DNA of 64,000 nt from positions 96,001 to 160,000 of the forward strand of contig JBCCHT010000025.1 in assembly GCA_039028615.1 (NCBI GenBank), written 5' to 3'. The position numbers and the translations under genes are program-made. The notes beneath the pieces are model-generated. The model was given only the letters and a program-made list of their open reading frames with translations. It searched no databases and was not told the origin of the DNA. The stretch's first letter is position 1, and every line of letters starts with the position of its first letter. The stretch is from Myxococcota bacterium (GTDB lineage: Bacteria; Myxococcota_A; Polyangia; Nannocystales; Nannocystaceae). This document shows, in pieces, positions 10,107 through 39,606 of this stretch.

Positions 10107-10779
10107 GGCCCGCGCGGAGCTGGCTCGCCTGTGGGCCTTTCGGTGTCAGAGCGAGCACGAAGCCCGGGCCCGTTTCGCGTGGCTCGAGCCTCGACTGGCC
10201 AAGCACGATGCACCGAAGTCCGTGGTCGACACGGCCACCCGCGCGGTCGAGGACGAGGCCCGTCATCGTGGATCGTGCGAGACCATGGCGAAGCGCTTCG
10301 GACACCAAGGCCCCACGCATCGCGCCCACGGCCTGCCGCAGTGGGGACCCACCGAACTCACCGAGCGCCAACGGACGCTGTACACCGCGGTCACCATGGG
10401 CTGCGTGATCGAATCCATGAACGTGACGCTGCTGGGCGAGACGCTACGCGTGGCCCAGGACGAACAAACGCTGCGGGTGGTCCGCGAGATCATGCGCGAC
10501 GAGGTCCAGCACGCGCGCCTGGGCTGGGCGTACCTGGCCGCGGTGGCCGACGACGCCGATTTCCTCGGGCCGCTGCTGCCTCGCATCCTGGCCGCGGCCG
10601 CGGGCTCCGAGCTGTCGGAAGAGGCGCCGGAGTACCTCGCCGTGCCCAGCCATGGCCTGTTGCCCGCGAACGAGCTTCGACGGCTGTTCTACGTCACGCT
10701 GCAAGACGTCGTGCTGCCGGGGCTGTCGCTGCACGGCATCGATGTGAGCGCGGCCGAGCGCTGGCGCCGAAGCAACTGA
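10096..10779 (+). CDS. Ferritin-like diiron-carboxylate domain protein
   Basis: SEHEA, EDEARH, GCVIES, RDEVQH (two ExxH motifs). Confidence 0.85.
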   Translation: MEAEARAELARLWAFRCQSEHEARARFAWLEPRLAKHDAPKSVVDTATRAVEDEARHRGSCETMAKRFGHQGPTHRAHGLPQWGPTELTERQRTLYTAVTMGCVIESMNVTLLGETLRVAQDEQTLRVVREIMRDEVQHARLGWAYLAAVADDADFLGPLLPRILAAAAGSELSEEAPEYLAVPSHGLLPANELRRLFYVTLQDVVLPGLSLHGIDVSAAERWRRSN

Positions 10780-16669: not shown

Positions 16670-19600
16670 TCACCGCGTACGGCGTCGACGGCCGCGGCGG
16701 AGCAGCAGCATGCCCATCAGCAGCAGGAAGGCGCGCGGGCCTCCGCTGCTGTTGCCGGTCTTGCAGCTGTTGCAGCCCTCGTCCACCGCGGAGGCGTTGG
16801 GCGAGGAGTCCCCGGTGGAGCCGGTCGCCCCGTCGTCCGAGCCGCTGCCCGTGTCGGTGCCGCTGCCCGTGCCTTCGGTGTCGCTGCCCGCGGTGGTGTC
16901 CGCGGGCGACTCGGTGTCGGACCCGGTGCCGTCGGGGGTGTCGGTGGTGCCGTCCGACTCGCCACGGCTGGTGGAGCCGCCTTCGTCGGTCGAGCCGCCT
17001 TCGTCGGTCGAGCCGCCTTCGCTGCTGCCCGACTCGCCCCCATCCGTGGTTCCCGAGCTGCTCGACTCCCCACCATCGGTGGTTCCCGAGCTGCTCGACT
17101 CGCCACCGTCCGTGGTCCCCGAACTGCTCTCGCCGCCCGTGGTCCCCGAGCTGCTCGACTCGCCACCGTCCGTGGTCCCCGAGCTGCTCGACTCGCCGCC
17201 ATCCGTGGTGCCCGAGCTCCCCGAGCTCCCCATCATCCCTTCGACGGTGAACTCGTGGTAGTCGACGTCGGGCGCATCCAGCGGGTGCGTCTGGGCCAGC
17301 TGCGCGACCGTCGAGTCGACGGCCTCGATGTAGTAGTCCACGCCGGGCGGCAGCACGAACGCGGCATCGATCTCCGCCTCGTGGGTGTCGCCGACGGTCT
17401 GCGGCATGTCGACGCTCGTCCACATCCCCATGCCGGAGGTGCGGTAGTAGAGCGTCACGCTGGTCAGCCCGGTGGCGTCGGTGATGTCGGCGGTGACCGT
17501 CACCCCGAAGCCCTCCTCCTGACCGTCCACGATCGGGGTGTGGACGATGACGGGCGGGTCGACGTCGATGGGTCCGACGTCGAAGTCGTAGAGGACACCG
17601 GGTGCACCGAGCGGCGCGAAGCCGGTGTTGGAGCCGCCAAACGCGAGGTCGGTGGCCTGGATGTAGTACTCGACGGCCGGCAGGGCGACCGCGCCCCCGG
17701 GAATCGTGCCCGAGTAGAGACCGCCGCCCACCAGGGGCATGGCGGCCGCCACGAAGGGCCCACCACCCGCGGTGCGGTAGTACAGCAGCACCGAGTCGAC
17801 ACCGGAGGGATCGGCCACGGTGGCCTCGATCGTCACTGGCATCCCCTCGAGCTGACCGTCGGTGATCTCCACGTGGCTGATCGCCGGGGGATCGACGTCC
17901 TGGTCGATGACCTCGACGTTGTGCCAGGTCGCCGGAGCGGTGCCCGGGTCCCACGACTGGTTACCCAGGGTGTCCTGAGCCGAGATGTAGTAGTCGACCC
18001 CGGGCGCCACGACAGAGGGAATCTCCGCCGACCACAGGCCCGCGCCGAAGTTGGTCATCGCGATCTCGGTGAAGACCCCGGCGCCCTCGTCTCGCCACCA
18101 GACCGAGGCACTATCGACCCCGGCCCCGTCGTTGAGCGTGGCCTGCACGACCACGTTCGAGCCGCTGAGCACGGGGCCCATCACCGGCGTATGCGCGATG
18201 GTGGGACCGGCCGTGTCGTTGGTGTCGACCGTGAAGGACAGCGGGGCGCCTGCCCCACCGGCCGGCGCAACGCCGACGTTGGCGGCCGGCGACGCGTCGG
18301 TCGCCAGCACGTAGTACTCCATCAACGGAACCTCGACGTCCCCGGCGGGGATCGTCGCCTCCCAGTTGTCGCCCACCGTGTTCGCGAAGGGCACGGGGCT
18401 GAAGTTGCCGCCCTGCACGCGATAGAAGAGCGTCGCGCTGGCGACCCCGCTCGGGTCGGTGATCGAGGCATCGACGGTGACCGCGACCCCCTCGAGCTGG
18501 CCGTTGGGGACCGGCGCGATCAGGATCGTCGGCGGGTCGACATCGGGCGGCGGGATCACGGTCACGGTGGTGACCGCGGAGGTTCCCGTGTTGAGGTTCC
18601 CGTCCACCGCCTCGGCGTAGATGTCCATCGACGGCGCCACCATGGCCGCACCGGGGATCACCGCGGTGTAGGGCCCGGCCCCCACCGCGGGGACGGAGGC
18701 GTACACGGCCTCGGCCGTCTCTTTGTAGTAGACGGCGACCGAGGTGATCCCGGATTCGGCGTCCGTGGCGTTGATGGTGACCAGCAGGTCGTCGCCCTCC
18801 ACGTGAGGCTCGGCGATCGGCTCGAGGGTCACGACCGGCGCGGTCGTATCGGGATAGATGACCGTGACCGGGTAGTCGGTCGCCGGAGCGCCGACCGGCA
18901 GCACGGACATGTTCCCCAGGCTATCGCTGACGTCGATGTAGTACCCGACGATCACCGTGCCGTCGGGGATCGAGCCCGCCGGAACCGTAGCCTGGTAGTC
19001 GTTCCCGCCGATGTTGGCCATCGGCGCGTCCGCGTACCCGCCACCATCGAGTCGCCACCGCACCACCGCGGTGTCGATCGGCGAGGCGTCGGTGAGCGTG
19101 GCCACCACCACCAGCGGATCGCCGAAGTCCAGCTCGGTGATCGCGGTGTGGGTGATGATCGGCCCCGTCATGTCCGCGGCGATCACGGTGAAGGTGTGCC
19201 AGCTGCTGAACGGGTCGGTGGACACGTTGGCCCCCGGCGACCCGTCGACCGCCTCGATGAAGTAGTCCACCCCCGCCGTGGTGACCGACGCCTCGGGGAT
19301 GCTGGACGTGTAGACGTCCCCGGCCCCCGCGACCATGGCCACGATGGTGAAGGTGGGTGCCCCCGCGATGCGGTAGTGCAGGTTCGCGGCCGTCACCCCG
19401 GAGGGGTCGACGATCGTGGCGCTGATCGGCACCGCCATGCCCTCGGTCTGGCCGTTGGGCACCTCGGTATGGACGATGGACGGGCCATCACCATCGACGG
19501 CGCCCACCGTGAACGAGTGGAACGAGCCCGGGGCCCCCACCGGATCGGAGGAGGAGTTGCCGAGCGTATCGTTGGCCTGGATGTAGTAGTCCACGCCCGG

Positions 19601-22600
19601 AGTCGACACCGCCCCCGAGGGGATGTCGGCCTCCCAGACATCGCCGCCCACGTTCGCCGCGTTGACGAACGAGAAGATCGGCAGCCCGCCTTGGGTGCGG
19701 TAGTAGACCCGCACGAAGGACAGACCCGAGACATCGGTGACCGTCGCGCTCACCGTCACCGCGGCGGCCGGAGCCTGACCGTTGGCGACGGGCGTGTGCA
19801 CGATGACCGGCCCTTCGGCGTCGACCGTGTCCACCGTGAAGGTGTGCACGGACGCAGGCGCACCCGCGGGGTCGGTGCCGAAGTTGGCCGACGTGTCGGA
19901 GGCCTCGATGTAGTAGTCGACCCCGGCTGCCGTCACGTCGATGCCCGGGATCTGAGCCTGCCACGTGTTGCCGCCGATGTTGGCCATGGCCGAGCTGCTG
20001 AACCCGGCCGCCCCGACGTCACGGTAGTAGACGGTGGCTGCCGCCACCCCGCTGGCGTCGATGATGTCCGCGGTGATCGTGACCGGGTTGCCCGCGATCT
20101 GGCCGTCCGCGATCGGCGTGTGGTTCATGGTGGGCGGGGTCGTGTCCGAGCCCGCGCCTTCGACGACGGTGAAGTCGTTGAGGATGATCGGCGCCCCGAT
20201 GGGGTGCGTGCTGACGTTGGGCACCGCGTTGGTGTCCGAGGCCTCGAGGTAGTACTCGATGCCGGGCGGGTTGACGTCCACGGCCGGGATGCTCGCCGAC
20301 CAGACATTGCCGCCGCCGTCGGACATGGCCAACACCGTGTACGGGTCGGCGCTGCCCAGCGTGCGGTAGTAGACGTAGGCCGACCCGACGCCGGTTGCAT
20401 CGGAGATGGTGGCCTGGATGTTGACCGGCGCGCCCTCGTTCTGGCCGTCGACGACCTCGGAGTGCACGATGTCGGGCGGGTTGTTCTCGGTGACGACCAG
20501 GAAGTCCCACACCGCCGCGGCCGGAGCTCCGGCCGGGGTGATGCTCGAGTTGCCGAGCGGGTCGTCGGCGACGATCCAGTACTCGACACCGGCCGTGGTG
20601 ACCGAGGCGCCGGGAATGACGCCGCTGTAGGTGTTGCCGCCAACCAGCGCCAGGGGCACGAAGCCGGCGCAGTTGGTCAGCTCGCCGATCGCCCGGTAGC
20701 AGGCGAAGGCCGAGTTGACGCCCGAGGGGTCGGTAATGTCCGCGACGATCGCGACGTCGTTGCCGGCGATCTGCCCGTCGGGGATCTCGGCATGGATCAC
20801 GTTGGGACCGGTGGTGTCCGCTCCCATGCCCGTGATGTGGGCCACCGTGGTGTCGACGTCGGTGAGCCCGACGTTGTCGGTGACGGTCAGGGTGACCGTG
20901 AAGTCGCCGACACTGTTGTAGGTGTACTGCGGGTTGGGATCGTTGGACGTACCGACTCCGTCGCCGAAGTCCCAGCTCCAGCTGACGATGGTGCCATCGC
21001 CGTCGGTGCTGGCCTCGTTGAAGTTGACCGGGTTACCGACGTCCTCGAACACCTCGACACCCGCATCCGCCACCGGGCGCATGTTCACGTCGAACTGCAC
21101 GCGGTGGTGATCCTCGGCGCCGTCGTTGTCGATGATCGTGATGTAGGCGAACTGCCCGTTGCCGTTGGTATCGAAGGTGTAGTTGGGCGACAGGCCCGCG
21201 ACGACCTCGCCCGTGCTCTCGATCGTCCAGTAGGCGGTGTCGATGGTGCCGTCGGGGTCCACCGCGGCCGAGCCGTCGAGCACGATCGGCTCGTTGTGCG
21301 GCTGAAGCACCGTGTCGGGGATGCCGTCCGCCCGCGGCTCCTGGTTGGCCGCCGGATCGAACTCGAACGCGCCCATGTCGGGGGCCGCCCCGATGGTCCG
21401 CGGGTTGCCCCGGATGTCCAGGGTCGGCAGGTTGGGCGCGGACGGATCACCGCCGTTGACCGCGAGCGACTCGGCCCACACCGCACCGTCCCACCAGCGA
21501 GGGAACGCCTCCCAGTCGTCGTCCTCGATCAGCGGGTCGATGAAGATGTTGCCGATGTTGTTGCTGCCCGAGGGCGCCTCGGCCCGGTTCGAGGTGTCGA
21601 AGAAGACGTTGCTACGGTGTCGCTGGGTCGACGAGGTCTCGCCGTAGATCGCGTAGGTGCGACTGTTGGCGATGATGTTGTTGTAGATGTCGTAGTTGCC
21701 CGACGAGCTCGTGTAGTAGATACCGTAGCGCTGGTTGACGATCGTATTGTTGATGATGTCGAGGTCGTTACCCGAGTTGGTGACCCGGATCCCGTACCCC
21801 GTGCCCGCGTAGTTTGCGTGGGTGATGTACGAGCTGCGGATCGTGCCATCACAGCCCCCCGTGAAGTACATCCCGTAAGCGTTGAGGCCGTCGCCAATGA
21901 TCGACACGCGCTCGATGTCGACGTCGTTCGTCGCGTTGTCCACGTCGGATCCGTAGATGCCGTACGCGTCGACGTAGAGCATCTCGGTATCGGAGATGAC
22001 CGGACCCGAGGGCCCCGTCATCCGGATACCGGTGTTCGGGTACTCGATGCGAACGTTGCTGACGTTGGAGGTACCCGCGTCGAAGAAGCGCAGGCCCTGC
22101 CAGTCGCTGGGCTCGGGGTTGATGGTGTCCGGCGCGAGCGTGATGGGTGCACCGCTGTCGTCGGTGACCAGGGTGCCGCCGCTCAGCACGCGAATCGCGG
22201 ACCGGGAGGAGACCTCGCCGCCTCCCATGTCGTCGCCATCGACCTGGAACAGCAGCACGGACCCCGGCTGTAGCGTCACGGTGGACCCGGTCGGGACGAT
22301 GATGTCCCCTGGGACCTGGTGGCTGCCCGCCAGGAAGGTATGGTCTTCCCAGAAGTAGCCCATCATCGGCACGGTCAGGTGACCAACATAGGGTTCGACG
22401 CCGATATAGCCATCGAGCCCCTGGTTGCGGTTGGGTGATCGCGACGTGGGCCGGTAGTCACCGCCCGCCAGGTCCGCGTACAGAGGGTTGTACCCAAAGC
22501 ACCCACTGCTATCGATGAGCCCGCCGTTGCCCCCGCCATTGCCCCAGCGGTTGGTGTCGTTGCAGTTGACCCCTCCACTGGTCGCCGAGCTCACGTTGTG

Positions 22601-25267
22601 CGTGATCGAGCAGGAGTTGAAGGTCATGGTGCCGCTGAAGGTCCGAGCACCGTACAGGCCGTTACCCACGATGGTGTTGTGGGTGTGGTTCTGAGTCCGC
22701 GCCTCGATCCCCTCTTGCCCGTTGTTGGCGAGGGTGAGGTTCGACAGGTTGGACGTGGTCACGTTGGCGTAGATGCCCTCGGTCCCGCTGTTCCAGACGC
22801 CTCCGACGTCCCAGTTCAGCGTGCTGCCGCCCTGCACGTGGAGCCCGCGCGCCCCGCTGTTCTCGATCGTGACGTTGGTGAGCGTGGGCGAGCCACTGCC
22901 GGTGAGGTAGATCCCGTCCTGCGTACTGTTGGTCACCACCAGATCGGTGAGGTTCAGGTTCGGGGTGTTGGAGTTGATACCCCGGTAGTTGTTGTTGAGG
23001 GTCGTCCCCGTGATGGTGGGACCACCGCCCGTGATGAAGATGCCGGCGTCGCTCGACTCCTCGATGACCGCGTTTTGGATGATGTGGTTGCTCGAACGCA
23101 GGTCGAGGCCGTTGCGCGCGTATCGGATGTTCGTCTCCGAGACGTTGAACGACGGCGACGACGCGATGATGACCAACCCGGTCCAATCGCCGGGCGCGGG
23201 TACGGCCGCCGCCGAGGTCATGTTCGCGAAGTTGGAGACGGTGCCGTCGGCCTCGAGCTCGCCCGCCACGTAGATCTCGACGAGGTCGAGATCGGTACCG
23301 GCCTCGAGCGTGTCGCCGATCACCATCTCGAGCGTCGCCCCCGGCTGCACGGTGACCGTGGTGTCGGGGTGAATGAGCATGTCCCCCGATAGCTGGTAGG
23401 TCGTGTCGGCCGCGAAGACATGATCGACGTACCAGGCCCCGTGGAAGCCGGCCGGGCTCGGTGCGCCGACGTAGTCGATTGCGCCCGCGGCTCCCGTGCC
23501 GTCGAGCGGACTCCACCACCGAGCCGGCGAGCGCTCGGTGGGCTCGAAGTTCCCGTTGGCGGCGTCGACCAGCAGCGCGTCGGCGCGAAGGTTGTCGTAG
23601 ACCCGAGTGCCCGAGGACGGCACGCTGCCGCCCCACCAGACGTTCTCGCGGATGTCGGTGTTGGAGCAGTTGTAGGTCGACGCGCTGAAGACGGTGTTGC
23701 TCGAGAAGAAGACGTTGCGCGTCAGGTCGAGGCAGGTCGACGAGCTGGGATAGTTCCGAATCGCGTAGCTCGTGGCGCCATAGAACGTGTTGAACGAGGC
23801 GACCATCGTGCCGCTGCTCGAGGCGGTCGAGTACACGCCGTACTGGTTCACCCCCGCGAAGATGTTGTTCGTCAGCACCCCCGCCCGCTGATAGTTGATG
23901 CGCGCCCCGGTGTTGAAGTCGGTGATGCTCGAGTTGCTGAGCTGCATCGACCCCGAACCCGAGTACGTGTGGTAGATGCCGTAGTCGCTGTTCGACGCCG
24001 GGTTGCCGGTCATCGTGACCCCATCGACGACGGTCGTGGTGCCCGAGGCCTGCACACCTCGAGCGCAGCCGTTGAGCGTGCCGCCGTTGAGCGTGAACTG
24101 CCCGGAGGTGTTGACGCAGTATCCCGTCGTGCCCCCGCCCGTGGCCGTAAAGTTGTTGACGACCAACGTGCCGTTCGTCTGCAGGAGGCCAGTGGCGTTG
24201 AAGGTCGACACCGTGACGTTGTCGACGGTGTGGTTACCCACGCCCGGAGACGTGAAGCGCAGCGCAGTGTCGGCGTGACGGAGCTCGGCGTACGAGAACG
24301 AGCTCGAAGACCCGCTCTGCAGGATGATGCCCTCCCAGCTGTTGGAGCTCGTCAGCGTCTCGTGCTCGAAGATCACCGGGTTGGCGGCCGTGCCCTGAAC
24401 GTCGAGCGTGCCCTGCACGTCGATGAAGCGGCCCGTATCGCCGGCCCCCATGTGGACCTCGACACCCGCCTCGATGGTCAGGGTCACGCCGGCCGAGATG
24501 GTGAGGTCACCCGCGCCCGGGCCGATGATGTAGGGGCTGCCCGCCAGGTCCCAGGTGGTGTCGACGTTGATCGCCGTGCCGGGAGCCACCGGGGTCATGT
24601 GCGTGACCACGGGACCGATGGTCACGTCGAGGTCGTCGGGCACGGGGGGTGAGCTGCTGCTCGAGCTCGAGTCGTAGTCACTGCCGTCGGACGAATCCTC
24701 GGAGAAGATTCGCTGGCCCACGACGTGGACCTCGGGATTGAGCCCCGCGAGGTCTTCCACCCCGCGGTTGCCGGTCACGATCAGGTCGCCACCGATGAAC
24801 CCGAGCCCACCGAGACCCATGAGCGAGGTCAGCTGATCGTTGTCGACGACGATCAGGTTGCCCTCGATCTCGATGATGCACTCGAGCCCCTCGAGGTCCT
24901 CGAGCTCGGAGGCGAGGATCACCAGATCGCCGGCGATGATGGTGTAGCCCTCGAGCGCCGCCACATCTTCGGCGGTGACCAGCGCGACATCACCCTCGTA
25001 GACCTTGTCTTCGTCGGGGCAGACGAGCTCGCCATCGTCGGACGCGGCCGCATCACTGGCCGTTTCACCGCCGCTCCCCGTGGCCGAGTCGGAGCCCGCG
25101 GTCGTGCCCGTGGACCCCCGCGCGGGCTCGGTATCGACGGTCGCGACCGACGTCGCCCCCGTCGTCGTCCCAGCAGGAGGCACCGCATTGTCTGGCCCGT
25201 CGCACGACAGCAACACACCCAACGAAAGCACCGCGGTTCGCCATGACCGACGCGCAAGCAATCCCAT
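16670..25267 (-). CDS. 2865-aa surface protein: receptor-L-like region, right-handed beta-helix regions, PKD domains, 11 Ig-like repeats, MYXO-CTERM-like tail
   Basis: Lipobox LLSC; Asn/Gly-rich beta-helix stacks; PDMGAFE; WSWDFGDG PKD; repeated PPxIxH...YYIEAxD units; GCNSC + hydrophobic + RRRR terminus. Confidence 0.88.
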   Translation of the reverse strand: MGLLARRSWRTAVLSLGVLLSCDGPDNAVPPAGTTTGATSVATVDTEPARGSTGTTAGSDSATGSGGETASDAAASDDGELVCPDEDKVYEGDVALVTAEDVAALEGYTIIAGDLVILASELEDLEGLECIIEIEGNLIVVDNDQLTSLMGLGGLGFIGGDLIVTGNRGVEDLAGLNPEVHVVGQRIFSEDSSDGSDYDSSSSSSSPPVPDDLDVTIGPVVTHMTPVAPGTAINVDTTWDLAGSPYIIGPGAGDLTISAGVTLTIEAGVEVHMGAGDTGRFIDVQGTLDVQGTAANPVIFEHETLTSSNSWEGIILQSGSSSSFSYAELRHADTALRFTSPGVGNHTVDNVTVSTFNATGLLQTNGTLVVNNFTATGGGTTGYCVNTSGQFTLNGGTLNGCARGVQASGTTTVVDGVTMTGNPASNSDYGIYHTYSGSGSMQLSNSSITDFNTGARINYQRAGVLTNNIFAGVNQYGVYSTASSSGTMVASFNTFYGATSYAIRNYPSSSTCLDLTRNVFFSSNTVFSASTYNCSNTDIRENVWWGGSVPSSGTRVYDNLRADALLVDAANGNFEPTERSPARWWSPLDGTGAAGAIDYVGAPSPAGFHGAWYVDHVFAADTTYQLSGDMLIHPDTTVTVQPGATLEMVIGDTLEAGTDLDLVEIYVAGELEADGTVSNFANMTSAAAVPAPGDWTGLVIIASSPSFNVSETNIRYARNGLDLRSSNHIIQNAVIEESSDAGIFITGGGPTITGTTLNNNYRGINSNTPNLNLTDLVVTNSTQDGIYLTGSGSPTLTNVTIENSGARGLHVQGGSTLNWDVGGVWNSGTEGIYANVTTSNLSNLTLANNGQEGIEARTQNHTHNTIVGNGLYGARTFSGTMTFNSCSITHNVSSATSGGVNCNDTNRWGNGGGNGGLIDSSGCFGYNPLYADLAGGDYRPTSRSPNRNQGLDGYIGVEPYVGHLTVPMMGYFWEDHTFLAGSHQVPGDIIVPTGSTVTLQPGSVLLFQVDGDDMGGGEVSSRSAIRVLSGGTLVTDDSGAPITLAPDTINPEPSDWQGLRFFDAGTSNVSNVRIEYPNTGIRMTGPSGPVISDTEMLYVDAYGIYGSDVDNATNDVDIERVSIIGDGLNAYGMYFTGGCDGTIRSSYITHANYAGTGYGIRVTNSGNDLDIINNTIVNQRYGIYYTSSSGNYDIYNNIIANSRTYAIYGETSSTQRHRSNVFFDTSNRAEAPSGSNNIGNIFIDPLIEDDDWEAFPRWWDGAVWAESLAVNGGDPSAPNLPTLDIRGNPRTIGAAPDMGAFEFDPAANQEPRADGIPDTVLQPHNEPIVLDGSAAVDPDGTIDTAYWTIESTGEVVAGLSPNYTFDTNGNGQFAYITIIDNDGAEDHHRVQFDVNMRPVADAGVEVFEDVGNPVNFNEASTDGDGTIVSWSWDFGDGVGTSNDPNPQYTYNSVGDFTVTLTVTDNVGLTDVDTTVAHITGMGADTTGPNVIHAEIPDGQIAGNDVAIVADITDPSGVNSAFACYRAIGELTNCAGFVPLALVGGNTYSGVIPGASVTTAGVEYWIVADDPLGNSSITPAGAPAAAVWDFLVVTENNPPDIVHSEVVDGQNEGAPVNIQATISDATGVGSAYVYYRTLGSADPYTVLAMSDGGGNVWSASIPAVDVNPPGIEYYLEASDTNAVPNVSTHPIGAPIILNDFTVVEGAGSDTTPPTMNHTPIADGQIAGNPVTITADIIDASGVAAATVYYRDVGAAGFSSSAMANIGGNTWQAQIPGIDVTAAGVDYYIEASDTSANFGTDPAGAPASVHTFTVDTVDAEGPVIVHTPVANGQAPAAAVTVSATVTDVSGLSFVRVYYRTQGGLPIFSFVNAANVGGDVWEADIPSGAVSTPGVDYYIQANDTLGNSSSDPVGAPGSFHSFTVGAVDGDGPSIVHTEVPNGQTEGMAVPISATIVDPSGVTAANLHYRIAGAPTFTIVAMVAGAGDVYTSSIPEASVTTAGVDYFIEAVDGSPGANVSTDPFSSWHTFTVIAADMTGPIITHTAITELDFGDPLVVVATLTDASPIDTAVVRWRLDGGGYADAPMANIGGNDYQATVPAGSIPDGTVIVGYYIDVSDSLGNMSVLPVGAPATDYPVTVIYPDTTAPVVTLEPIAEPHVEGDDLLVTINATDAESGITSVAVYYKETAEAVYASVPAVGAGPYTAVIPGAAMVAPSMDIYAEAVDGNLNTGTSAVTTVTVIPPPDVDPPTILIAPVPNGQLEGVAVTVDASITDPSGVASATLFYRVQGGNFSPVPFANTVGDNWEATIPAGDVEVPLMEYYVLATDASPAANVGVAPAGGAGAPLSFTVDTNDTAGPTIAHTPVMGPVLSGSNVVVQATLNDGAGVDSASVWWRDEGAGVFTEIAMTNFGAGLWSAEIPSVVAPGVDYYISAQDTLGNQSWDPGTAPATWHNVEVIDQDVDPPAISHVEITDGQLEGMPVTIEATVADPSGVDSVLLYYRTAGGGPFVAAAMPLVGGGLYSGTIPGGAVALPAVEYYIQATDLAFGGSNTGFAPLGAPGVLYDFDVGPIDVDPPVIVHTPIVDGQEEGFGVTVTADITDATGLTSVTLYYRTSGMGMWTSVDMPQTVGDTHEAEIDAAFVLPPGVDYYIEAVDSTVAQLAQTHPLDAPDVDYHEFTVEGMMGSSGSSGTTDGGESSSSGTTDGGESSSSGTTGGESSSGTTDGGESSSSGTTDGGESSSSGTTDGGESGSSEGGSTDEGGSTDEGGSTSRGESDGTTDTPDGTGSDTESPADTTAGSDTEGTGSGTDTGSGSDDGATGSTGDSSPNASAVDEGCNSCKTGNSSGGPRAFLLLMGMLLLRRGRRRRTR
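16970..17220 (-). repeat. Coding tandem repeats: ~33-bp GGESSSSGTTD units and 18-bp EGGSTD units (linker)
   Basis: Repeated gagctgctcgactcgccaccgtccgtggtcccc and gagccgccttcgtcggtc units. Confidence 0.85.
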
Positions 25268-30443: not shown

Positions 30444-30482
30444 AAAAAAAGAGCCCCGTCGCTTGGGGAGGCGACGGGGCTC
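30444..30482 (-). terminator. Rho-independent terminator ending ncRNA candidate B
   Basis: Perfect 12-bp stem GAGCCCCGTCGC/GCGACGGGGCTC followed on the minus strand by T7. Confidence 0.85.
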
Positions 30483-30739
30483 GAACTCGGGACTCTTGTC
30501 TTTTGGGGGATGAGGGGTCGAGTCGCGAGGGCCAATGCTGGACAGCAGCGCTCTATTGGGGGGGGAGGAAGGAGAGTCTGCTGTCGTCGATAGGCCGGGG
30601 ATATAGGCCGCGGGACATTGAACCGCGGCGCGAGGTCCACTGAGCGATTGGTCTAGGTAGACCCGTAAAGGGTCTGACTCGGAGCGGAAGGATTGGGGGG
30701 GGAGGGTTTCCGCTGCGAGTGCCGCTCAGCGACAACGCA
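30444..30739 (-). ncRNA. Candidate structured ncRNA B (~295 nt) with four C-rich loops
   Basis: Hairpins 30451-30482, 30486-30529, 30541-30585, 30677-30720; minus-strand loops CUCCCCAA, CAUCCCCCAA, CCUCCCCCCCCAA x2; closing stem 30640-30646/30723-30729. Confidence 0.65.
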
Positions 30740-30745
30740 GCTACT

Positions 30746-30781
30746 TAGTGGGATTCGCTCACCAACCGATCACGAAAATCG
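30746..30781 (-). promoter_or_regulatory. Duplicated promoter-like element (GTGATC-N17-CACTA), copy B
   Basis: 28/36 identical to 31103-31138 without gaps; lies just upstream of the first stem of RNA B. Confidence 0.6.
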
Positions 30782-30865
30782 GAGAAAAAAAGCGTGAGCA
30801 AAAAGGCGCCGATTCCGGTCGTAGGGCCCTCTCGACGGGCCCACAGGCCTGATTGGCCTGGAACC

Positions 30866-31096
30866 AAAAGGAAGACCCAGACCGCGTTGGGGGCTCGCGG
30901 GCTGGGTCGAGGAGGAACGGATTCCGACTGTTGAGCGCGCGTCGGAATCCGGACGGAAATTGGTGCTGCGTGGGGGCTCGCAGCGGGTGCATCGGCCACA
31001 CTGGTTGGGGGCGGCGAGAAGAAAAAACCGAGCGCGAACCCGGGGCCCAGGAAGAGGGCTCGACCGGGCTCGACGCCCAGTGCGGTGACGATGCGA
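30866..31096 (-). ncRNA. Candidate structured ncRNA A (~230 nt) with three C-rich motifs
   Basis: 5' stem 30989-31004/31077-31094; hairpins 30965-30984, 30918-30951, 30874-30908; loops AGCCCCCA(A); last hairpin followed by UUCCUUUU. Confidence 0.55.
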
Positions 31097-31102
31097 CGGA
31101 GG

Positions 31103-31138
31103 TAGTGGAAACGGCCGATCAACCGATCACGGAAATCG
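31103..31138 (-). promoter_or_regulatory. Duplicated promoter-like element (GTGATC-N17-CACTA), copy A
   Basis: Direct repeat of 30746-30781 with identical spacing. Confidence 0.6.
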
Positions 31139-31204: not shown

Positions 31205-31960
31205 CTAGGGCCGCACGCCCTCGAAGATGACGTTGTCGGCCAGGGCCCGGCCCCGCGTCAGTCCGGACTCGTCTTTGATGGTCCAGGCCAATAGAGGGAT
31301 GCCGAGCCGACGCAGCAGCCTCGGCGCGGGCTCGCGCAGCGAGGCCAGCTCGTAGCCCACGTAGTGCGGCCGGACCCAGGGCGCGGCGAGCAAGTGCTGC
31401 ACGATGGGTTTTTCGTGGGGCTTCATCTCCCAGTCCCGCGTGCGGCCGGCCAGCATGCCGCGCGGCAGGTCGGGCGCATGCTGCCGCAGCCAGTGCAGCG
31501 AGCGGGGGTTGAACGACTGCACCACGTAGCGCCCCGGCCAGCGACGCAGCACGTCGAGCACCCCTTGCTCGAGCCGCCCGATGGGGGACTCCGCCTTCAG
31601 CTCCACCACCACCGGGACGCGATCGGCCACGCACTCGAGCACCTGGTCGAGCGAGGGCACACGCTCGTCGCAGCTCGCCAGCTGCAGGCAGGTCAGGTCG
31701 TCGAGCGTGCAATCGCGAACCGCTCCCGGGCGGCCCGTCATGCGCTCGAGGGTCTCGTCGTGGAACACGACCACGCCGTCGTCGCGCGTGCGGTGCACGT
31801 CGAGCTCGATGGGGTAGCCCGCGGCCGCGGCCGCATCGAAGGCGGCCAGCGAGTTTTCCGGCCGCAGCTCGTCGTGCAGGCCACGATGAGCCACCGGCCG
31901 CCGCAGCAGCCACCCTGGCGCGTCTCCGCCCCGAATCAACGATCGCACGCGCGCCATCAT
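31205..31960 (-). CDS. Glycerophosphodiester phosphodiesterase family protein
   Basis: AHRG, PENSLAAF, IELDV, VVFHD, VELK, QSF, AWT. Confidence 0.93.
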   Translation of the reverse strand: MMARVRSLIRGGDAPGWLLRRPVAHRGLHDELRPENSLAAFDAAAAAGYPIELDVHRTRDDGVVVFHDETLERMTGRPGAVRDCTLDDLTCLQLASCDERVPSLDQVLECVADRVPVVVELKAESPIGRLEQGVLDVLRRWPGRYVVQSFNPRSLHWLRQHAPDLPRGMLAGRTRDWEMKPHEKPIVQHLLAAPWVRPHYVGYELASLREPAPRLLRRLGIPLLAWTIKDESGLTRGRALADNVIFEGVRP

Positions 31961-32039
31961 GCGACGGCCCCCCCGACGGGACAATCGCCCGGATCACCGA
32001 GCCCCCGAGATGCGCGCGCAGGGCTGGTAGGCTTGGGCC

Positions 32040-38810: not shown

Positions 38811-38982
38811 TTCTTCCCTCCGACTCGCGCCCCCCGGACGCGTGTCGGGCCAACCCGGAGCCGGCCTCGCAACGATGCCGGCTCGTCCGCGTGGAGTCGC
38901 CGTGACCGCCCTCCACGTGCTCGTTTTCAACGATTCCAGCCCATTGGGACGCCCGGGGTCGCAGGCGCTAGGATGCCGGCCA

Positions 38983-39606
38983 ATGGAGGACTGGGAGCTG
39001 TTCCGGGCGTGGAGCGACGGCGATCGAAAGGCGGGCGAGGCCTTGGTCCGGCGTCACGTCGGCGTGCTGACGCGATTTTTCCGCAACAAGGTCCGCAACC
39101 CCGACGACGCGGCCGAGCTGACCTCCGAGACGCTGCTGGCGTGCACCAAGAACAAGGACCGCATCGAGCCGACGTCGTTTCGATCGTACCTGTTCGCGGT
39201 GGCCATGAACACGCTGCGGCACTACTACCGCAAGCAGACCAAGCGAAAGCGAGAGCTCGACGACTTCGAAGAGCTGTGTGCGGGCGACTCCGATCACCCG
39301 CAGTCGCTCAGCTCGTTGGCCGAGATGGTCTCCGAGGGTCGCTTGCTCGTCCGAGCCCTGCGACGGCTCTCCCTCGACCAGCAGATCGTGCTCGAGCTCG
39401 AGTACTTCGAGACGCTCAAGGGCACCGAGATCGCCGAGCTGCTCGGCATCCCGCCCCAGACGGTCTACACCCGCAGCCGTCGCGGCAAGGAGCGGCTCAA
39501 GACGGTGATGACCGAGCTCGCCGACAACCCGCAGCTCGCTCAGTCCACCATCATGGGCCTCGAGACCTGGGCCCTGGAGATCCGCAAAGAGATGGACCGC
39601 ACCTGA
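38983..39606 (+). CDS. ECF sigma-70 factor, paralog of 611..1240
   Basis: ELFRAWSDGD, FRSYLFAVAMN, EIAELLGIPPQTVYTR, C-terminal STIMGLETWA; start refined to ATG 38983. Confidence 0.9.
   Translation: MEDWELFRAWSDGDRKAGEALVRRHVGVLTRFFRNKVRNPDDAAELTSETLLACTKNKDRIEPTSFRSYLFAVAMNTLRHYYRKQTKRKRELDDFEELCAGDSDHPQSLSSLAEMVSEGRLLVRALRRLSLDQQIVLELEYFETLKGTEIAELLGIPPQTVYTRSRRGKERLKTVMTELADNPQLAQSTIMGLETWALEIRKEMDRT

Follow-up and report, generated by a model that had tools for sequence, protein, structure and literature searches.

Two candidate C-rich-loop sRNAs share a putative ECF-type promoter with a kinase-sigma factor operon in Nannocystaceae

CsrB/RsmZ sponges are built of repeated short-loop hairpins, the number of which varies between species. 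GsrN of Caulobacter crescentus is an ECF-activated sRNA whose C-rich loop pairs with G-rich leaders and whose homologues usually lie beside the sigma locus, according to the available sections of PMC5869019. The RpoH-dependent RSs0680 cluster provides a precedent for C-loop RNAs controlled by an alternative sigma factor (PMC4615179, in the part available), and Hfq is reported as absent in myxobacteria (PMC5568312, excerpts). ECF sigma factors associated with kinases comprise the groups ECF43, 59-62, 217, 267 and 283 and some of ECF210 (PMC7826278, excerpts), and the available supplement passages of that paper name no Nannocystaceae. Our literature search, from which subscription papers were excluded, found no sRNA of the Nannocystaceae described.

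The stretch of DNA analysed here, referred to as the window, spans 64,000 nt (G000:C25:96001-160000) of the 12.3-Mb genome G000, which is 96.7% complete. The locus of interest is a 921-nt gap between a GDPD gene (31205-31984, minus strand) and a DUF1592-family/DUF1552 operon on the minus strand. Six ORFs, each 80 aa or longer and with GC3 of 0.60-0.68, overlap with it. Against seven homologous loci they gave only short matches of 21-84 aa with E-values from 4e-4 to 8e-3, one of them containing a stop, and no conserved reading frame was found, in line with the original prediction that the gap holds no credible ORF. We propose, with a probability of about 0.5 for the reading as a whole, that the gap encodes two base-pairing sRNAs, A and B, which would serve a small kinase-ECF regulon as its post-transcriptional arm. 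Elsewhere in the window, a 2865-aa ORF (16670-25267, minus strand) contains many repeated extracellular-looking domains and ends in what we take to be a MYXO-CTERM-like sorting tail.

Structure and distribution of RNAs A and B

The minus strand of the gap carries seven CCCC(C)A motifs, ending at 31006, 30971, 30888, 30694, 30557, 30504 and 30464. Six of them belong to hairpin loops, and the seventh is in the 5' domain of A, within its multiloop; these positions agree with the original description, and the stems proposed then agree in position with the folding of both units. The folding z-score is -6.3 for the A region (0 of 200 shuffles equally stable) and -10.0 for B (0 of 100). The motif count by itself is moderately unusual, with seven or more CCCC+A in 11 of 2000 shuffles, and the crude C-loop-hairpin count of five was matched by 289 of 2000 shuffles; by a crude C-loop-hairpin detector the gap ranks in the top 6 of 3464 intergenic regions. 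Across 16 units, C makes up 38-53% of the unpaired positions and G 2-14%. The highest count of C-loop hairpins by the crude detector (eight) came from a long intergenic stretch at G000:C18:157704-159942 (minus strand), which may be an uncalled gene or repeat.

RNA A (30866..31097, minus strand) is ~232 nt long, with its start placed from the putative promoter and a 3' end that may reach ~30785. Its 5' domain (30990..31094) has a long closing helix GCAUCG/CGAUGC and an inner C-rich element, which lies in a multiloop in G000 and in a GCCCCCAAA hairpin loop in relatives. Further along the minus strand are a hairpin with the loop AGCCCCCA (30966..30985), a hairpin (30918..30951) whose loop contains the self-complementary GCGCGC (30940-30935) and whose stem, helix 3, covaries, a single-stranded anti-Shine-Dalgarno (anti-SD) linker CCUCCUC (30909..30915), and a terminator-like hairpin with the loop AGCCCCCAA and a weak U-tract (30866..30908). 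The linker is invariant in six aligned units; it reads CACCUCCUC in 4/7 units and contains CCUCCU in 6/7, the GCGCGC loop is likewise found in 6/7, and the A of one congener lacks both. Through tandem hairpin expansion the number of C-motifs ranges from 3 to 10 across the seven units. The loop sequences drift (CCCCAAA, CCUCCA, CUCCCAA), whereas the anti-SD linker does not.

RNA B (30444..30740, minus strand) is ~297 nt long and consists of a closing helix that bears a long C-rich loop (~30693), a UUCAAUGU hairpin, two further C-loop hairpins (~30556 and ~30503) and a terminator. The latter (30444..30482, minus strand) is a conserved intrinsic terminator, called by the terminator scan, with a 12-bp stem, the loop CUCCCCAA and U7. 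The earlier statement that each unit ends in a hairpin plus U-rich tract with the motif in its loop thus holds for B in full; the tail of A, UUCCUUUU, is weaker than that of B and was not called by the terminator scan.

Both RNAs are conserved in relatives. B was found in eight genomes or contigs, namely 6/6 genomes of the genus plus two metagenome contigs, and A in seven (G000, G001, G002, G004, G005, L219 and L221), usually in tandem. A DNA search of 61 genomes recovered both halves or the promoter in 4/5 congeners, all with the tandem locus, A before B and the upstream motif at each unit; the fifth, G003 (92% complete), has B alone, and A was not found in it. A metagenome pattern scan gave seven loci, two of which are complete A+B tandems. 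A covariance model of the B 3' half built from six genomes gave these two, which had no part in building it, scores of 80.7 and 80.2 bits, and gave no match among 37 chance promoter-pattern loci (32 viral and 5 metagenomic). Over 73 genomes its strong matches were restricted to the six of the genus; three weak ones (E 0.003-0.01) resembled terminators, two of them sitting right after an ORF end. A 19-nt hairpin pattern occurred in 7/301 genomes of the phylum, below its reversed control. The overall range is narrow, at three genera. The flanking genes differ over four tandem loci, GDPD being retained in G004 alone and DUF1592 in G001 alone, which indicates that the A+B pair moves as a module.

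Covarying stems accompany this conservation, as the original prediction had anticipated. In the 3' half of A, 11/25 pairs are changed on both sides (0 of 500 column shuffles), and in that of B 7/23 (2 of 500), while the closing 5' helix of B alone shows weak covariation (3/12 pairs; 60 of 500 shuffles). The covariation is supportive rather than proof, because the controls ignore kinship and the structures derive from the same alignments. The antisense strand has a lower free energy than the sense strand in 13/16 units, so that fold energy cannot settle the strand. In the closing helix of B, eight sequences contain 11 G-U cells versus one C-A cell on the minus strand. We take the minus strand as the sense strand because of this 11:1 ratio, the promoter orientation and the U-tracts. 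With lengths close to the ~230 and ~295 nt first suggested (the ends being predicted ones), A and B are very probably two real minus-strand ncRNAs.

The upstream element and its link to a kinase-ECF operon

The element shared by the regions upstream of A and B, recognized in the original prediction, is a 36-nt repeat with 78% identity between the two. From its sequence it appears to be an ECF-type promoter, GTGATCGGTT-N12-C(C/A)ACTA, with the consensus (G/A)TGATCG(G/A)TT-N12-C(C/A)ACTA, which stands 5-6 nt upstream of the conserved 5' ends of the RNAs. Putative promoter A (31103..31130, minus strand) has a -35 GTGATC(G) at 31130-31125, a 16-nt spacer and a -10 CACTA at 31107-31103; putative promoter B (30746..30773, minus strand) has GTGATC at 30773-30768 and CACTA at 30750-30746. 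The motif precedes 10/10 tandem units of G000, G001, G002, G004 and G005.

A position weight matrix (PWM) built from 16 sites, including all four strong G000 sites, found only these four above 30 bits in the 12.3-Mb genome, the next site reaching 21.0 bits and none in the reversed genome reaching 14. Promoter A is the top site of the genome at 50.6 bits, and promoter B scores 46.8 bits, both being training sites. The remaining two form a divergent pair on contig C3, before an operon of a small ORF, a Ser/Thr kinase and an ECF sigma factor. One site faces the small ORF (97 aa), the kinase-TPR gene (893 aa) and the ECF gene (G000:C3:88541-89158), and the other faces a 125-aa ORF. The same divergent layout is present in G001, G004, G005 and G017. 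The tie between the upstream element, as a putative ECF-type promoter, and a kinase-ECF operon is new relative to the original prediction.

Among the closest named relatives of the ECF gene are records labelled Nannocystaceae or Nannocystales, including Paraliomyxa miuraensis at 87%. Orthologues of at least 70% identity occur in 14/73 genomes of the order, the next matches being at most 65% identical, and form one clade with a support of 1.00. The exact motif pattern was found in 11/14 orthologue-bearing genomes, the other three having PWM sites of 24.8-44.2 bits, compared to 1/59 genomes without the orthologue and 0/73 for the reversed pattern. The three genera in which the motif accompanies the ECF are related, so these counts are not independent. 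In a comparison of 63 loci around ECF homologues, the site is present in 12/13 close orthologues (the 13th has little upstream DNA) and in 3/50 others; some of these genomes also served to train the PWM, and the training set has sites in common with some of the loci tested. Two of the three other site-bearing loci, L122 and L125, encode ECFs of another clade with 48-49% identity. Their kinase-ECF operons start with GTGATCGATT-N14-ACTA directly upstream of the kinase gene, which makes them an independent case of the same geometry. The other 13 motif sites in these two genomes stand before ordinary genes or nothing clear, and no C-rich RNA was found at them.

In the sister genus g15, the motif stands upstream of a third C-rich RNA, C, in 8/8 genomes, and no motif site faces the ECF operon. 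RNA C is ~220-270 nt long with C-rich loops and a terminator, and it is divergent from the ECF gene in G019, G028, G036, G061, G063 and G065, the six genomes in which the linkage is visible. In its alignment 9/54 pairs are changed on both sides; loci L067, L068, L069, L070, L085, L185 and L190 share invariant CGGCGA..CGCG/CGCGAUGAACGCCG helix ends and CACCCCACCACCC loops. The B 3' half model did not detect RNA C at five loci, and we regard C as a separate candidate sRNA family. Together, C and A/B show the same promoter motif attached to multi-C-loop RNAs in two genera. The distance from C to the ECF gene is ~0.8 kb in G019, G028, G036 and G063, too short for a full kinase, and in G028 a short ORF between them resembles the N-terminus of the kinase.

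On this evidence the A/B promoter is likely read by the kinase-linked ECF. The gene order, compared with the kinase-associated ECFs in the excerpts of PMC7826278, suggests that the kinase would control the sigma factor; with acidic residues retained at its DAED position (GLED), the ECF gives no indication, by this feature, of being activated by phosphorylation.

Several further features of the regulon were observed. Immediately upstream of the ECF start codon, most of the 13 orthologues viewed have a TG-TAnnnT-like element (L038:~10520-10540; loci L102-L113, L120), which suggests a leaderless housekeeping transcript of the sigma gene. The two small unannotated proteins (L038:6489-6866, minus strand, and L038:7310-7603, plus strand) may have beta-sandwich folds, a weak assignment; neither gave a Pfam family or a usable Atlas feature match, and structure matches were below TM 0.5. 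The 125-aa protein has CCCCCA in place of an SD before its ATG, and in G005 it is reduced to ~35 codons with the leader kept. Extra motif sites in two genomes (L065:6029, plus strand, and L170) precede a small ORF starting ML(Q/E)YFGFY, an orthologue of which was not found in G000. The window's own ECF gene (~38980-39606) belongs to the ECF expansion of G000.

Proposed mode of action and alternative readings

In our model, A and B act in trans as sRNAs, each of them transcribed on its own. The C3-encoded ECF, in an operon with the TPR-containing Ser/Thr kinase, would read GTGATCGGTT-N12-C(C/A)ACTA, and upon a kinase signal it would switch on its own operon, the divergent small ORF and both RNAs. 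The exposed C-rich elements, i.e. the CCUCCU linker of A and the CCCUCCCC and CUCCCC loops of B, would then pair with G-rich leaders and Shine-Dalgarno sites and change mRNA translation or stability, probably without Hfq; the pairing, like the direction of the regulation it would exert, is part of the model. Sharing their promoter signal with a kinase-linked sigma factor, A and B probably carry the effect of its switch on translation.

Genome G000 uses Shine-Dalgarno sites of the GGAG/AGGAG type, with GGAG at 172 of 803 unambiguous starts versus 28 further upstream; the 16S tail was not found in the assembly. A duplex scan of the loops against the leaders of 8762 roughly called genes placed 114 of the top 200 sites of the A linker, and 97 of the top 200 of the B terminator loop, at the SD position, a clustering that is partly circular because the start calls used the SD score. 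By contrast with the linker, the GCCCCCAA loops of A had no positional preference in the scan, and their complement UUGGGGGC has no peak at starts (TTGGGGG, at G000 start codons). As anti-RBS elements the loops are thus neither the sole nor the best candidates, which corrects the original reading, and the best-conserved putative seed of A is the anti-SD CCUCCU linker, which had been missed. No specific mRNA target stood out among the 8762 genes. Kinase mRNAs, in which the P-loop ATG GGG GTC complements the GACCCCCA loops, were considered as targets and rejected, as GGG is not enriched (27/89 vs 109/405, p=0.51), and the start sites of seven ECF operons showed no conserved G-run that would point to feedback.

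Neither Hfq (PF17209) nor ProQ was found in G000 at 96.7% completeness. The genome encodes KhpA/KhpB-family genes and CsrA with a FliW-like neighbour; csrA and the adjacent fliW-like gene lie at L213:1043-1809, downstream of a sigma-54 regulator gene. The SD use, the C-rich unpaired parts, the invariant linker and the lack of detectable Hfq or ProQ together favour pairing with G-rich leaders initiated by loops and linker, a mode that we liken to GsrN (PMC5869019, excerpts) and to the cuckoo proposal (PMC4615179, excerpts). Base-pairing is thus rather likely to be the main action of A and B.

Alternatively, the (A/G)CCCCCAA hairpins of A could titrate a C-rich-RNA-binding protein, with Rho or a KH protein of the KhpA/B kind as candidates, in the way that CsrB titrates CsrA, and B or the A linker may still base-pair. 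We consider such a protein sponge somewhat unlikely. It would fit with the expansion of A from 3 to 10 C-motifs over seven units, the KhpA/KhpB-family genes, and the co-regulated small ORF having CCCCCA just before its start and no visible SD in G000, G001 and G005. CCCCCAA also peaks at -30..-21 of predicted starts (26 versus 2-14 in other bins); however, other A/C-rich words peak in the same bin (CAACCCC 23, ACCACCC 20), so the peak is not motif-specific. Moreover, the A loops drift while the linker is invariant, and the hairpin number varies in cuckoo RNAs too, whose loop motif is read as anti-SD in the available part of PMC4615179.

An extended form, in which A is also an expandable multivalent scaffold, seems to us doubtful. 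Here the 3-10 C-loop hairpins would titrate a C-rich-RNA-binding protein, the palindromic GCGCGC loop would dimerise A by loop kissing, and the kinase-switched, four-promoter ECF would act mainly through RNA. The 9-mer of the GCGCGC loop has a computed self-duplex energy of -13.7 kcal/mol, and GCGCGC is the same hexamer as in the HIV-1 dimerisation loop. If true, this arrangement would define a counterpart of the CsrA/CsrB system that is built on C-loops, in myxobacteria lacking Hfq.

A and B could also be real RNAs, but with a different sigma factor reading the motif, or with the motif serving as the operator of a transcription factor that also controls the kinase-ECF operon. G000 has ~87 ECF-like and 336 kinase-like genes by rough gene calls, and 68 of the ECFs have a kinase within 1.5 kb, so the motif could be read by another paralogue; the co-occurrence of motif and ECF follows kinship, and in most of the 13 orthologues viewed a TG-TAnnnT-like element precedes the start of the ECF gene itself. 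Nevertheless, the motif is bipartite and non-palindromic with fixed spacing, 5-6 nt before conserved RNA ends, its physical linkage to this ECF holds across three genera, and it appears again before the operons of a second clade of kinase-ECF pairs, while the pattern lies within 350 nt upstream of 0/87 ECF-like genes and at most 4/336 kinase genes of G000. We therefore regard this reading as distinctly unlikely.

Very unlikely is a set of cis-elements or repeats, be it a 3' UTR of GDPD, a leader or attenuator belonging to the DUF1592-DUF1552 operon, or hairpins of the REP type. The genes on either side are both encoded on the minus strand and C-loop hairpins are common in G000 intergenic DNA (1.3 per kb by the crude detector), yet the neighbours change across the four tandem loci, each unit has its own putative promoter, and the region is single-copy in G000. 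Finally, a functional plus strand, with G-rich GGA loops serving as a CsrA sponge, is extremely improbable despite the presence of CsrA and the more stable antisense folds, since promoters, U-tracts and G-U cells all point to the minus strand, the A loops have no GGA on the plus strand, and csrA adjoins a fliW-like gene (below cut-off, E 7e-14). That neighbourhood presumably points to protein control of CsrA.

Comparison with known systems

Searches against Rfam 15 found no family at the gathering cut-off in the window and no match at E<=1 in three relative loci. The best weak match by E-value was ar14 (E 0.038; 23.8 bits versus a cut-off of 58.8), and the 6C RNA (RF01066) scored 20.4 bits versus 47, which is in agreement with the novelty originally suggested.

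The -35 GTGATC of the A/B element is common to ECF11 promoters; however, the -10 of ECF11 is CGTA instead of CACTA, and ECF11 has a ChrR-type anti-sigma, compared to a kinase-TPR partner here, with no ChrR-like gene seen in the operon (PMC7826278, excerpts). The arrangement of an ECF beside a Ser/Thr kinase with TPRs is that of the kinase-associated ECF groups in the same excerpts. Genomes of the G000 type contain dozens of kinase-ECF pairs, and this locus gives one of them a concrete, putative promoter and a predicted four-site regulon, half of it sRNA, which makes testable the role of a myxobacterial kinase-linked ECF, kinase gating, and sRNA action without Hfq or ProQ. Both promoter pairs are present in the genome of the cultured strain Paraliomyxa miuraensis SMH-27-4 (L120), so that a laboratory host exists.

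Pxr of Myxococcus and Cystobacter resembles A and B in being a myxobacterial hairpin sRNA with tandem paralogues, each with its own promoter, and no Hfq (PMC5568312, excerpts). It differs in being a 108-nt RNA with a sigma-54 promoter that lies after nla19 and occurs only in Cystobacterineae, as far as these excerpts state; A and B are set apart by their 230-300 nt, the ECF-type promoter, the occurrence in Nannocystaceae and the upstream GDPD gene. A separate array of ~7 C-loop hairpins with CUCCCCCG loops at G000:C6:248620-248970 (minus strand; L223, L224), directly 3' of a well-conserved NtrC-like sigma-54 regulator gene, recalls in its place that of pxr after nla19. A similar array is present in G004 (L229), partial in G002 (L242), absent in G001 (L234) and not evident in the other loci viewed (25 in total); the ECF-type motif is absent at the C6 array.

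With CsrB/RsmZ, A and B share repeated hairpins of variable number, but the loops here are C-rich, and 0/4 GGA triplets on the sense strand of A and B are fully unpaired. Compared to GsrN (PMC5869019, excerpts), they likewise have C-rich loops, activation by an ECF and pairing with G-rich leaders are proposed for them, and RNA C also lies beside the sigma locus. By contrast, the sigma factor of GsrN is controlled by PhyR/NepR rather than linked to a kinase, several C-loops are present here, and Hfq was not found in G000. No sequence likeness of A or B to GsrN was found.

The cuckoo RNAs (RSs0680/CcsR, ar14 and SmelA075; PMC4615179, excerpts) also consist of modular hairpins with C-rich loops in variable number, with covarying stems, alternative-sigma control and clustering. 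However, their CCUCCUCCC loop motif occurs in 1/16 units here and in neither G000 unit, and compared to their 2-4 adjacent simple hairpins, A and B are longer units with branched 5' domains, at least five hairpins and a putative promoter each. In their proposed mode of action, A and B thus resemble known C-rich sRNAs governed by an alternative sigma factor, yet by the features compared they belong to none of the four families cuckoo, 6C, CsrB and Pxr.
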